8,034 bases of DNA. Origin: a virus. Its lineage: Duplodnaviria; Heunggongvirae; Uroviricota; Caudoviricetes. Below, one piece after another: positions 3,001 to 8,034 of this stretch. Each line of letters opens with the position of its first letter. Positions within the stretch are counted from its first letter, which is position 1. Location: IMG/VR virus record IMGVR_UViG_2703718789_000001, positions 1 to 8,034 of that record; one strand, given 5' to 3'. The position numbers were made by a program.

Positions 3001-6000
3001 TTGGCAACATCCGTTCCATAAAGATGCGCCAATAGCTCGGTGGTTATGACAGGGATCTGGTTGTGGGTAATCGGGGAAAGAGTTTCAACTGCGATTTTGG
3101 TGGCCATAAGATGATCCTTTTTCTTTGTGAATCATCACCACCTGCGACGCCAATCGCTTGGTGGTGAACTGTGCAGGGTTGGCGTAACCGGGAAAAAGGA
3201 ACCGGCGCGGATTGCTCCGCCCCCACACAGCCCACCATTGAGATGTGACTGTGCAAACGACAATAAAAAAGACGCTGGCGCGTCTGTTGTCGCCTTTTTC
3301 ATCCGGGACGCCAATCCCGACGCCAGATTTTGCTGGCGTGTGAGGAATATAGCCCCGGATAAATCATCGCGTCAATCCCCTTGTATTCCTCGCACGATGT
3401 CTTAGCCACCGGATATCCCACAGGTGAGCCGTGTAGTTGAAGGTTTTTACGTCAGATTATTTTGGGATTGGCTTGCGTTTATTTCTGGAGCGTTTCGTTG
3501 GAAGGTATTTGCAGTTTTCGCAGATGATGTCGGTGATACTTCGTCGCGTCATTCCTCTTGCCTACGTTTCACATCCCGGTACTCACAATCATCTGGAATC
3601 GTCAGCCGCATCCCCTTCCGATGCGCCCACTGGTCAATGTCTGTCAGATATTTATGCATTTCCCCGATATCAAGCTGGCGCGTTGATTTAACGCATCGCG
3701 TAATATTAAAAATCGTCACCTTTTTTACCGGACAAAATATATCTTTTAGCCACTCATGAACCTCTTCAGGCGTGAAGTTTTCAGCAGAAACAGCAGATAA
3801 CTGTGCGGCTATTTCTGTATTCCACATCCACAGAAGACTGTTTTGTGACAATGTACGCTTCTCACGGTACTCAGATATTTTTATGCGCCAGCGTTTTCCG
3901 GTTTTAATTATTTCTTTAAGGATTTCCCAGAATTGTGATTTATTAGTTTCGTGCAGAATAAAATCATTCATCATCAGTCATCAAAATCGAGTTGTTGGAT
4001 AATTCTGTTGCGCTGAAACTCATTGTTGAGTCTGAACAACCGTCGAAGAACACGGTCACGCGGATAGCGCCGTGCGGCAGGTGAATGCTCATACAACTCA
4101 TCAAGCGGCAAACTGGACGATGAACGATACCGATACCAACGCACCAACTCTTCACGAAAATTAGCCCTGACAAGCTCAGCTATCGTACTCATTTCTTAAA
4201 GCCTCCAATCCCTCTCCCCCAAATAAAAAGGCCTGCGATTACCAGCAGGCCTGTTACAAGCTCAGTGATGTAGATGGTCATTGCTTCATCTCCCCTTCCA
4301 TTTCATCAATGTCAACGTCATCAGGAAGATGGGAACAATACGCTGCTATACCATGATGATTTATCTCATACCCTTTGAACGTTACCATCTGGCGCGTAAT
4401 CTCAACTTCGTTCAGGAATCCGCCATCGCATAACTGCCTGGCTATTTTCGATTTGGTCTGGATTATTGGTAGTGCCTGTTCTTTCAAAGCGTATGATATT
4501 TGTGCATCCCATGCCTTTTCGAGAATGGCTAATTGTTTTTTATTCATTTAATACTCCGTCACGTTTTCCTGTCGCCACGCCTCGTCATATTCCGATTTCG
4601 GCATATTGGCGATGTAGCTATATGGCGATCCTGATTCAAGTTGCAGGAACTGGTGCGATTGCTCGTCAAGGAACAACGGGACACCACCTTCCCAACCTTC
4701 GCCGTTACGTTGTTTTTCAAGCATCAAAACAGATGCCGGAGATGCCAGTAGCTGTTCGTCCTTCTCTGACATCTTTTCACCACTCTGAACTCTCTGTAAC
4801 GCTCTCTCGCGAGCCTTGTTACGCCAGATGATGAAAAGGTTGTCTGTCAGGTCTGTTATCGCTCCAGAGCCTTTTACGTCCATTTTCCCGGTTGGTTTTT
4901 CTTCGCTGTCTCCTTTTCGCGAGTGAGTAACGAGAATGACGTGGGAGTTTGTTTTGTTTTTGAAGTCGCAAATCGAGTCAACAAACGCCTTCTGCCCGTT
5001 ATAGTCATCGTCGCCTATGCCACATTTCATCAGGCTGTCGATGATGAATAACTGGATCCCGTATCGGCGGCGAGCGTAGTCGAATATTTCGATCAGCCTG
5101 TCGGCTTTCGCCGTTCCGGTCAGGCCAAACACCCAAAGTCTTTCGTCATAAAATTTAAATGCAGAGTCAATTTCCAGCAATGGAGGCATCTTGCAACACG
5201 TTGCCTGACGGGTAAGGCGCTTAAGGAGAATACCAGGCTTCAGCTCAAGTGACGCGATGCACGTCTTCACACCCTGACGCATTGCCTCAAGTGCCATATG
5301 CCCGACAACCTCGGTGTTATGCGTCGCCACATATCCCCTGGTTACATACAGGTGGCGAGGGTGATCGACCATAATACACAAGCATTCTGCATTGCCGATT
5401 TTTTCAACATTCCTGACGAATACCCCACAGCCCTCGAATCGATGCGCAGTTAATCTGCCATTGAGTCGTGGTGAACGGATGGCCTCCCTGATTTCTCTTG
5501 TCAGTCTGATTCTTGCCTCGTATGAATCCATCCCATGCCGCTTATCGTCCTTGTATGTGTATGTCACGCCAGTTTTAACTCGCGTCCGGCATGACCCGCC
5601 GAGTGAGTTAACCAGTTGAACAACCCCATTGCGCAGTTCTTCACTTGCTGAGGAAAAAACAAGCGTTCCATCCTTCTCGACATACCCATCCGTTTCAAGC
5701 AGACCACACAGCATGCCTATACGCGTTGATTTATTTGCGGAAAAAAACACACGAGGGATGAATTTGTTTTTTGCTGTGCACCCCATTAGTCCATAACCTC
5801 GCAGGGTCTCCATGAGTGGATTTGCCTGACCACGCGCCGTTGATATCAGCCAGTCCTTACCATCTCCAGAGAAGTTGTAATCAGGCAGTTCAGCCTTCAT
5901 ACGCTCGATCATGTATGGCTCGACGTTTGAAAACTTCACGCTCCCATTGCTAAGACTACCATCCCCGAGAAGGGAGCCGATAACCCATGCTAATGGCTCT

Positions 6001-8034
6001 GAGTGGTCGCCAAAGTCACCAGTTATTTCAGGAATCCTAACGCCATTTTTGTGCCTCTTCGTTTCACTCAACCGCTTCAGCTCGAAGGTGTCAATCACGC
6101 GGCGTTTCTCGCCTTTCGTGAATCCACGACTAGTGACCTCCCATAGGTGATCGCCTGCGCAATCAACATAACGACCATCTTCAAATGTGACTCGGTAAAC
6201 ATCTCTAACACCCTGCGGGAATATCCCAGTGACAGTTGACGGATTGCCGTCTACTGACGCCACCTGATCGCCAATTTTTACATCCCCGTGAGTAGTCCAT
6301 GTCCCATCAGCTAAAAGAATAGGCTCATTCAGTGGGCATGCCTTTCCGTGACCGTTCACACCATTGACCAGCGTCAACTCTGCCTCACGGAACTGGAATT
6401 TATCTGCCAGAGATTTCCACGGTGGATTAAACAGATACTGCTGCTTGCCGTAGAAAGCGTTGATAGTGTCCTGGTAAAACTCTCGCGCGCTGTAGAGTTC
6501 TTCGGGGTCGAAGTAGGATGCCGTGCCGATGTACTGCCAGATTTCATCCTCGGTAACACCGTTCATCAGGCATTCGTTGATGTCTTTGTACGGCAGTGTA
6601 ACAAGACGGCAACGATGTTCACCGAGTCGGCTTGCGATTTCCCTTGCGGCTTCACGACCAACATCATCAACGTCCATCGAGATGAATATTTCCTCAAACC
6701 TGTCGAGGTTGTGATACTCAAACTCAATCCACTGTTGCTTAGCACCTTTCCCGCCACCAAACGGCACGGATAACGCCGAGATGCCGTATTGCGCATAGCT
6801 CATACAATCAATTTCGCCTTCGCAAAGTACAACCGCCCTCACGCCAGCGTCCAGAGCCTGCCATCCGAACAGACAAGGTTCGCAATCACCTTCTGCCATA
6901 ATGACTTTCTTCCCGTCCGGGCGCTCAGTGCTGATTCGCTTGACCTGCAACAACTCACCATCGCGTTTGTACGGAATCACCAGAGCATCCAGTTCTCGTT
7001 CTCCATTCCACACCTTGCCGCTGACAACCTCGTAGCGCTTTACGACTTCTGGCGATATGCCACGCGATTGCAGGTACTCAAGATGGGATTCTGTTCTGGT
7101 AACGTAGCGGGCGATTTTCTTGCGATCAGGTCTGGAGAATTTCTTCTCACGTCTGGCATCGAAATGGTGATCGTCATCCTTGATACCGAGAAATGCTTTC
7201 GCTTCCTGCATAGCCTGATGCAGGTTAATTCCACGACATGCCATCCACAAATCAAGCATGTCACCGCCGTCTCCCTCAGCGAAATCAGCCCATTTTTTCT
7301 TGCCGCTAAGGTTGACCTTAAGGCTGTTTCCCTTGTCACCGTTAACGTTACCGGCAACCCACTCATGCCCCTCTTTCTTGCCGTTTGGCAACAGGTGCGG
7401 AGCCACCCTGTCAACCTGCGCCCAAAGCAGGTCGCTAAGTTCACTTGGCGTCATGATTCCCTCAGATTGAGATTTTTAAACCAGAAATCGACAAACGAAA
7501 TACTTAACCAGCCGTGGTTATAACCAGCGACCAGTAGCGATTTGATTTTTGATTTCATGGTTCACCTGTCGAAAAACACGTAGCCAGTTTTCGATACGGT
7601 GATTGCGGATGATGGTCTGGCTTGTGGTTGAATGGTTTCTGGCTTCTCGTCGTTCCAGCGCTGACCGTTCAGGTAGCTCGATGGTAACAACCTGTCGAAT
7701 CCGAACTGCTTACCATTCCTGCATGCGATGTCTTCTGCCAGCATCGTGGCAAACTCGCTTGCCGTACCCCCGGTAGTTTTACGCCATTCCCTGAACTGTG
7801 TTCTGAATGCCGAAGCTGCGTTTTTCTTCCCGGCTTTCCGCATGCCTGCACACCAGAATATTTCCTCGAATGCCTTGTCGGTTTCTTCGTGACGGTCAGA
7901 TGATTTTTCGCACTTCGTTCGGACACGTTCGAACTTAATGTTTTTAGGTTCATTGACTGGTTCAAAAGAGTGATAGGTTCTGGGGTCAGCTCCTGCCCCA
8001 CCCCCTAGGTCAGCTCCTGCCCCACCTAATTCTG

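Follow-up and report, generated by a model that had tools for sequence, protein, structure and literature searches.

A putative class 3 LAGLIDADG intein in the Walker A motif of a T7 gp4-like primase-helicase from a lambdoid prophage of the Shiga toxin 2a phage type

An 8,034-nucleotide stretch of a Caudoviricetes virus (IMG/VR record IMGVR_UViG_2703718789_000001, positions 1 to 8,034; hereafter, the window) contains a lambdoid prophage primase-helicase gene whose Walker A motif, or P-loop, is split by a 342-residue insert. With a probability that we put at about 85%, this insert is a class 3 LAGLIDADG-endonuclease intein, located at GVNGHGK/T (the slash marks the insertion point) of a T7 gp4-like primase-helicase, in a prophage replication module of the type found in Shiga toxin 2a (Stx2a) phages. 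The element is genuine, ordinary and was already reported in 2012, and its mechanistic class is corrected here; the family of class 3, phage-associated P-loop inteins has been well described since 2010. The present analysis adds the exact boundaries and the class of the element, its placement in a gp4-like rather than a DnaB scaffold, and population evidence for mobility. The precursor and its parts are as follows, with the evidence for each in parentheses:

4548-7454, minus strand: precursor open reading frame (ORF) of 968 residues, encoding a bifunctional primase-helicase like T7 gp4 and corresponding to gene P in Φ24B/Min27-type lambdoid phages (ORF list, Pfam, T7 gp4 match)
6342-7454, minus strand: N-extein, residues 1-371, comprising the primase/Toprim region and the start of the helicase (alignment with the mEp043 intein-less allele, Toprim_2, T7 gp4)
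6342-6362, minus strand: first half of Walker A, G365-V-N-G-H-G-K371, at the end of the N-extein
5316-6341, minus strand: intein of 342 residues (372-713 of the precursor), in which a LAGLIDADG endonuclease domain is inserted into a HINT splicing domain (exact indel, AlphaFold2 model, Foldseek)
5313-5315, minus strand: Thr+1, precursor residue 714, the predicted C-extein nucleophile and the Thr of Walker A GK-T (allele comparison)
4548-5315, minus strand: C-extein, residues 714-968 and stop codon, the RecA-like helicase core past Walker A (AAA_25, T7 gp4)

Boundaries of the insert and intein-less alleles

We compared the gene with seven intein-less alleles, taken from two chromosomes and from phages of E. 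coli, Shigella and Salmonella. All seven differ from the long form by a clean, in-frame indel of 1,026 nucleotides, that is, 342 codons. The short allele reads GTG AAC GGT CAC GGA AAA / ACG GAG GTT (GVNGHGK-TEVV) and the long one GGA AAG / GCA TGC CCA … ACG CAT AAC / ACC GAG GTT; the DNA of the intein-less P-loop site across the junction is GGTGTGAACGGTCACGGAAAA/ACGGAGGTTGTCGGGCAT. Given the length of the indel and the empty allele GHGK-TEVV, the insert starts with Ala and separates the Lys of Walker A from its Thr, so that the intein spans residues 372-713, with Ala1 as its first residue and GxxxxGK/T as its insertion site. Thr+1 is encoded by ACC in each of the five alleles compared that carry the intein, and by ACG or ACT where it is absent. 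Base composition gives no foreign mark on the intein relative to its exteins (GC content of 0.49 versus 0.49-0.52).

These boundaries amend a first-pass annotation of the same DNA, made from the sequence alone. Its single 968-residue replication protein was found again, its claim that the insert splits the helicase P-loop holds (GHGK/T aligns with GMGK-S of T7 gp4), and the check that it proposed, alignment of the exteins with intein-free homologues, returned the clean in-frame indel, with empty-site alleles being common. However, its intein of 341 residues with an N-terminal Cys (5316-6338, residues 373-713, CPLNEP…ATHN) is one codon short, the Cys being residue 2, and the insertion point that it gave, after GHGKA, is replaced by GHGK/T in view of the empty allele. 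The correction has practical consequences, since with an Ala1 start the residue to mutate is Cys322 rather than the Cys at the junction, and the sequence of the spliced P-loop changes as well.

The host gene

Pfam searches with the host protein returned Toprim_2 at residues 209-296 (E=7.7e-12) and a weak match to AAA_25 at residues 790-849. When the spliced sequence was compared with the structures of T7 gp4 and Twinkle, the match (E=3e-23) covered residues 192-539, P-loop included. The gene, thus, encodes a Toprim primase fused to a RecA-like superfamily 4 helicase with GxxxxGK[ST], the arrangement of T7 gp4 and Twinkle. It shares 99.1-99.8% identity with the replication gene 'P' of several Stx2a phages (Min27, Φ24B, Stx2a_F403/F451, phiXuzhou21 and Stx2_16002) and 98.3% with a gene of the Klebsiella phage phiKp_30. 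PGAP labels the intein-bearing product simply as a 'toprim domain-containing protein'. In the Min27 record (EU311208; gene at 5001-7909 of the fetched stretch), two extra bases relative to all other alleles cause the gene to be annotated as two coding sequences ('P' and 'ORF31 putative DNA primase'); this excess is probably a sequencing or assembly error and not biology. InBase presumably holds an entry named 'EP-Min27 Primase'.

The intein had been reported in the P protein of vB_EcoP_24B (Φ24B), at residues 372-702, by Smith et al. 2012 (BMC Genomics 13:311; PMC3430580), the only relevant report found in the literature on inteins in Min27 or Shiga toxin phage helicases. It is the same element as that of the window, with an intein DNA identity of 100% and an identity of 99.1% over the whole gene, which is also present in Min27, Stx2a_F403/F451 and phiXuzhou21. 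The published start agrees with Ala372, whereas the published end, 702, differs from the true end at 713; the paper gives neither a mechanistic class nor an insertion site within Walker A.

Class 3 signature and relatives

Class 3 inteins have, as their hallmarks, a residue 1 that is not a nucleophile, a WCT triplet (Trp at block B position 12, Cys at F:4 and Thr at G:5) and a Ser or Thr at +1, and are mostly inserted in the P-loop of helicase-type ATPases (PMC2807308, PMC3196547). The insert has Ala1, the triplet W67/C322/T340, Thr+1 and a P-loop location, and it displays the general features of inteins, namely blocks A, B, F and G, residues H65, H341, N342 and T+1, and a HINT fold. The splicing blocks are:

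6303-6341, minus strand: block A, ACPLNEPILLADG, with Ala1 (6339-6341, non-nucleophilic) and Cys2 (6336-6338, lineage-specific) (empty alleles, relatives, PI-SceI/6BS8 alignment)
6135-6176, minus strand: block B, GRYVDCAGDHLWEV, with His65 (B:10, 6147-6149) and Trp67 (B:12, 6141-6143) (HMMER alignment to MchDnaB1 His65/Trp67)
5340-5387, minus strand: block F, ECLCIMVDHPRHLYVT, with Cys322 (F:4, 5376-5378), the predicted initiating nucleophile (aligned to MchDnaB1 Cys124 and the block F Cys of MsmDnaBi1)
5316-5336, minus strand: block G, GYVATHN, with Thr340 (G:5), His341 and Asn342

Features expected of class 1 are lacking: residue 1 is Ala, F:4 is Cys instead of Asp, and B:7 is Ala62 instead of Thr. 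Judged by its residues, the insert is, therefore, classed as a class 3 (Ala1/WCT) intein in which the predicted splicing residues are all present.

A phmmer search of the PDB retrieved, as top sequence matches, the class 3 DnaB inteins MchDnaB1 (6RIX/6RIY, E=5e-10) and MsmDnaBi1 (6BS8), with DHLW aligned on HQW and CLCIMVDHPRHLY…THN on VRCVEVDNPAHLY…THN. W67, C322 and T340 correspond to Trp67, Cys124 and Thr143 of MchDnaB1, for which roles have been described (PMC7664689). MchDnaB1 also begins with Ala1, after the N-extein SVGK. The register at the N-terminus is consistent with this: counted from Ala1, position 8 falls on position 8 of PI-SceI, in which the catalytic Cys is residue 1, and position 4 on position 4 of 6BS8.

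An exhaustive phmmer search of 1.84 billion representative sequences yielded 2,951 relatives at E<1e-30, and a word-indexed protein search with the intein gave six matches. We tabulated 155 relatives, comprising the best 150 of the 2,951 and five from the word-indexed search. Nearly all of the 155 carry H-W-C-T-H-N, and 106 combine Ala1/W/C/T with Thr or Ser at +1, typically in the form ARPxMGK/AQPL…; the ACPL of the window aligns with their AQPL, with Cys2 standing where the relatives have Gln. The N-extein was common to none of the tabulated relatives, while DnaB exteins were present in 97. In a 54-sequence alignment of relatives, H65, W67, C322, T340, H341 and N342 are invariant. Class 3 has been described as monophyletic; the grouping of the insert with it was judged from the nearest solved structures and the best 150 relatives, essentially all of them WCT, and not from a formal tree.

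The closest described systems are the class 3 P-loop inteins of DnaB helicases, MP-Be DnaB (PMC2807308), MsmDnaBi1 (6BS8, PMC6195587) and MchDnaB1 (6RIX/6RIY, PMC7664689). They likewise start with Ala1 after GK, lie between the Walker A Lys and Ser/Thr, and have His at B:10, Trp at B:12, Cys at F:4, Thr-His-Asn at the C-terminus and Thr or Ser at +1. The layout of the MP-Be DnaB intein, with 341 residues, Cys320, Thr339 and Asn341 (PMC2807308), is nearly equal to that of the window intein. The latter differs in its host, a T7 gp4-like Toprim primase-helicase and not DnaB, in the Cys at position 2 (Gln or Leu in the DnaB inteins), in the Ala at B:7, and in carrying an endonuclease, whereas the solved mycobacterial class 3 inteins are mini-inteins that lack one.

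Other Stx2a phages (among them LC487996, Stx2a 981509, and TL-2011a) have a paralogous intein in their DnaB-type helicase. It is 51% identical at the amino acid level, with Ala1/WCT, Thr at +1 and a nearly identical block F (ECLCIMV.HP.HLYVT), and it occupies GK/T of the replicative helicase P-loop. Its host is a non-homologous DnaB-family scaffold of 797 residues, and DNA likeness extends over just 65 nucleotides. Related inteins at the same P-loop position of gp4-type and DnaB-type Stx2a helicases illustrate movement between non-homologous ATPases. The paralogue of 981509 lies at 1305-3698 (minus strand) of the fetched LC487996 stretch and is itself a LAGLIDADG intein (ARPGMGK/AMAL…ECLCIMV…THN/T). 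The paralogous intein is present in 51 phage records and in 24-30 complete E. coli genomes, and PGAP often splits its host into separate DnaB N-terminal-domain and C-terminal-domain proteins.

Fold and endonuclease domain

The AlphaFold2 model of the intein, built on the 54-sequence alignment of relatives, has a predicted local distance difference test score of 96.6 and a predicted template modelling (TM) score of 0.93. In Foldseek searches, the whole chain matched PI-SceI (TM 0.70-0.77), TliVMA and PI-PfuI, the splicing domain matched the class 3 DnaB inteins (target TM 0.74-0.80), and the inserted domain matched the meganucleases I-DmoI and I-OnuI. The endonuclease domain, thus, shows the αββαββα pseudo-dimer with two acidic-ended LAGLIDADG helices:

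5952-5996, minus strand: LAGLIDADG motif 1 (block C), PLAWVIGSLLGDGSL, intein residues 116-130, with the putative catalytic Asp127 at 5961-5963 (conservation in relatives, Foldseek)
5763-5765, minus strand: Lys193 (block D), aligned to the Lys of PI-SceI 'VKNIP' (PI-SceI alignment)
5679-5723, minus strand: LAGLIDADG motif 2 (block E), RIGMLCGLLETDGYV, intein residues 207-221, with Asp218 at 5688-5690 (Pfam, alignment with PI-SceI ...LIDSDGYV)

The Lys of 'VKNIP' is one that we take to be the catalytic Lys301 of PI-SceI. In the 54-sequence alignment, G122, G126, G128, D218 and G219 are invariant, and D127 and K193 are at least 90% conserved. PI-SceI (Sce VMA1), TliVMA and PI-PfuI share the two-domain architecture, and the Lys of block D and the Asp of block E have aligned counterparts in PI-SceI; PI-SceI differs in being a class 1 intein with Cys1 and a +1 Cys, in its vacuolar ATPase host, and in a sequence identity of about 15%.

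Profile searches, which the first-pass annotation had also proposed, gave a divided answer. LAGLIDADG_3 matched the insert above its cut-off (35.1 versus 22.5 bits), whereas Hom_end_hint fell below (26.3 versus 32.1 bits), as did Hom_end, and NCBIfam returned solely far-sub-threshold matches to intein-containing proteins. The residues listed in that annotation (two LAGLIDADG motifs with acidic residues, the block B His, the C-terminal His-Asn and the +1 Thr) are all present, and the catalytic positions all look intact; what has changed is the class, as the signature that it called canonical is that of class 3 and not of class 1.

Distribution and mobility

We surveyed 5,426 complete E. coli genomes and detected the gene in 296. 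The long form accounts for 79 (~27% of the carriers), while the rest (~215) have the 1,881-bp intein-less form or its fragments; many phages are intein-less as well. Together with the 51%-identical paralogue in other Stx2a phages, these figures indicate that the rarity claimed earlier for such inteins was overstated for this niche. A scan of contigs from one genome per species gave no evidence of a wider taxonomic spread, with just two copies, in E. coli ECMA0423 and Shigella flexneri SFBU1023, both disrupted by an insertion sequence. The gene of SFBU1023 (1388-4426 of the fetched stretch) and that of ECMA0423, which matches the window gene at the same coordinates, are truncated at about intein residue 241, with OrfA/OrfB-type transposase genes of an insertion sequence on the opposite strand past the break in SFBU1023; the truncated gene is a decayed prophage copy. 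Intein-bearing phages on record as isolates include phiKp_30 (from sewage), Φ24B and Min27.

Identity among the 79 E. coli copies of the intein is at least 99% throughout, and no differences over 1,026 nucleotides were found among those of the window, Stx2_16002, Φ24B and E. coli UTAK-1, whereas the exteins of the same four alleles differ at up to 26 of 1,881 nucleotides, the number separating the window from Φ24B, mostly synonymously (Fisher p=1.4e-5 versus the intein; extein synonymous divergence, dS, of 0.048). In the comparison of the window with Φ24B, identity extends beyond the intein by 39 nucleotides upstream and 113 nucleotides downstream. On extein distances, intein carriage is not monophyletic: Stx2_16002, which carries the intein, differs at 11 extein positions from the intein-less Stx2_EH2086 and at 22 from the intein-bearing Φ24B. 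Over ~7.9 kb, Stx2_16002 and Stx2_EH2086 are distinguished by the intein, two junction codons and nine substitutions located 113-303 nucleotides 3' of the site; elsewhere, the two differ just by a single substitution, a small indel and a gap where the alignment ends. This pattern is what double-strand-break repair centred on the P-loop would leave, upon gain or precise loss of the intein, but alone it is no proof of a break made by the endonuclease. Taken together, the sequence comparisons suggest that the intein was recently mobile. The earlier description of a selfish element nested in a mobile one is supported.

Stx2_16002 and Stx2_EH2086 form a near-isogenic natural Stx2a pair, a ready-made experimental system in which the cost, regulatory role or neutrality of the intein for replication and toxin output could be tested directly. 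The inteins of the window and phiKp_30 differ at 26 nucleotides, with a ratio of non-synonymous to synonymous divergence (dN/dS) of 0.16; a dN/dS of 0.11 was obtained for the extein. Eleven of their 24 differing codons, most of them synonymous, lie within the first 14, and this 5'-junction patch looks like recombination from a more divergent intein allele; Cys2 is kept in phiKp_30 through a synonymous change of TGC to TGT.

Proposed splicing and homing

By homology to the MP-Be DnaB, MsmDnaBi1 and MchDnaB1 inteins, Cys322, activated by His65, positioned with Thr340 and packed by Trp67, would attack the Lys371-Ala372 peptide bond, giving a branched intermediate with a thioester at block F. The N-extein would then be transferred to the hydroxyl of Thr+1, cyclisation of Asn342 would release the intein, and an O-to-N shift would yield a helicase of 626 residues with an intact GK-T P-loop (junction VNGHGK-TEVVGHMALEAMR). 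In the precursor, 342 residues separate the Lys of the P-loop from its Thr, so that ATPase and helicase function should depend on splicing. The unspliced precursor is, thus, expected to lack ATPase activity, as has been argued for P-loop inteins (PMC6195587). No other helicase gene is visible in the replication modules of Φ24B and phiKp_30, and such isolated intein-bearing phages provide an indirect argument for working splicing. Likewise, since the intein sits in the sole visible helicase gene of the E. coli O157:H7 Stx2a-phage replication module, helicase maturation there probably needs splicing. The endonuclease, through D127, D218 and K193, presumably cuts the intein-less P-loop DNA, and, in a cell shared by related phages or prophages, the intein would then be copied in along with a short tract of flanking DNA.

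Prophage replication might also be subject to a checkpoint in which splicing responds to redox state or metals, although we regard this as doubtful. Two unusual residues neighbour Cys322: Cys320 and, next to the scissile Lys-Ala bond, the lineage-specific Cys2. By analogy with the Cys48-Cys118 disulfide trap of the mycobacterial class 3 DnaBi1 intein (PMC6195587), either could trap Cys322 as a disulfide. If such a checkpoint existed, oxidative conditions, by which Stx prophages are induced, would be linked to helicase maturation, and so would toxin yield, which follows phage replication. Stx2a phages with and without the intein, such as Stx2_16002 and Stx2_EH2086, would then differ in their induction and replication kinetics.

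Alternative explanations

The insert could be read as a canonical class 1 intein of 341 residues, with Cys373 as residue 1 and initiating nucleophile, whose splicing would leave GHGK-A-T. The Cys does adjoin the junction, a His-Asn followed by a +1 Thr fits any intein class, and a few WCT relatives (P0079, P0087) begin with Cys right after GK. We rejected this reading as hardly tenable: the codons missing from the empty alleles, which read GK-T, number 342 instead of 341; GxxxxGK[ST] would not survive the addition of an Ala; in alignments, residue 1 of PI-SceI and that of the class 3 DnaB inteins fall on the Ala; the GK/A-Q-P-L of the relatives sets the Cys at position 2; and F:4 is Cys, not the Asp of class 1. 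It is also very unlikely that the element is a splicing-dead relic, a pseudogene of cryptic prophages in which other helicases serve replication. Decayed copies do exist, such as those interrupted in SFBU1023 and ECMA0423 and the frameshifted Min27 record, but the ORF of the window is intact with all its splicing residues, intein and extein have dN/dS values of 0.16 and 0.11, and the replication modules of Φ24B and phiKp_30 show no helicase gene besides this one.

A stronger competitor, although still an unlikely one, is a splicing-competent class 3 intein that is passively inherited, its endonuclease being inactive and its patchy distribution arising from ordinary lambdoid recombination. Lambdoid phages recombine freely, the window is itself a mosaic that lacks a full-length match, a copy disrupted by an insertion sequence exists, and the endonuclease domains of the window and phiKp_30 differ by three non-synonymous and two synonymous changes, too few to demonstrate selection. 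Nevertheless, D127, D218, K193 and the Gly framework of both motifs are conserved in relatives that are 30-50% identical, the insertion site lies at the centre of the exchanged tract both in the near-isogenic pair and between the window and Φ24B, and identical inteins lie within diverged exteins. We favour a class 3 intein with a presumably functional endonuclease, while acknowledging several points that weigh against it. The conversion footprint could stem from homologous recombination in mosaic phages or from precise intein loss instead of homing. At B:7, Ala62 stands where class 1 has Thr and MsmDnaBi1 has Asp, so the details of N-junction activation may differ, and a Cys2 adjoining the scissile bond is unusual. 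Finally, the function of the Φ24B intein is given as undetermined by Smith et al. 2012 (PMC3430580).

Genomic neighbourhood

The window, which is read on the minus strand, belongs to the early-right region of a lambdoid prophage. None of the complete E. coli genomes contained a match to its full length, the best covering 87% at 97% identity, so that the prophage is mosaic and need not be Stx-converting. Around the primase-helicase gene, the following features were identified:

7562-7843, minus strand: end of an O-like replication initiator
between the 968-residue ORF and ninB: two small ORFs
3549-3974: ninB
3300-3352, minus strand: c4 a1/b1 target element (Rfam)
3265-3339, minus strand: isrK Hfq-binding RNA (Rfam, 79 bits)
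3157-3242, minus strand: C4 antisense RNA (Rfam, 74 bits)
2433-3107, minus strand: ant gene, following the C4/isrK antisense-RNA module
1957-2364 and 1788-2018, minus strand: two small ORFs between the antirepressor genes (phrog_1511 and phrog_672 are the families matched by the pair)
1073-1795: KilAC/Roi-type antirepressor
468-1073: ninG

The gap at 3108-3548, seemingly devoid of ORFs, contains the Rfam matches, which exceed the gathering score. The RNA module at 3157-3352 (minus strand) is a P1/P7 immI-like antisense control of the downstream ant-like antirepressor gene (2433-3107). The two small phage ORFs between the antirepressor genes, assigned to phrog_672 and phrog_1511, are conserved, have no assigned function and overlap each other by ~60 nucleotides.

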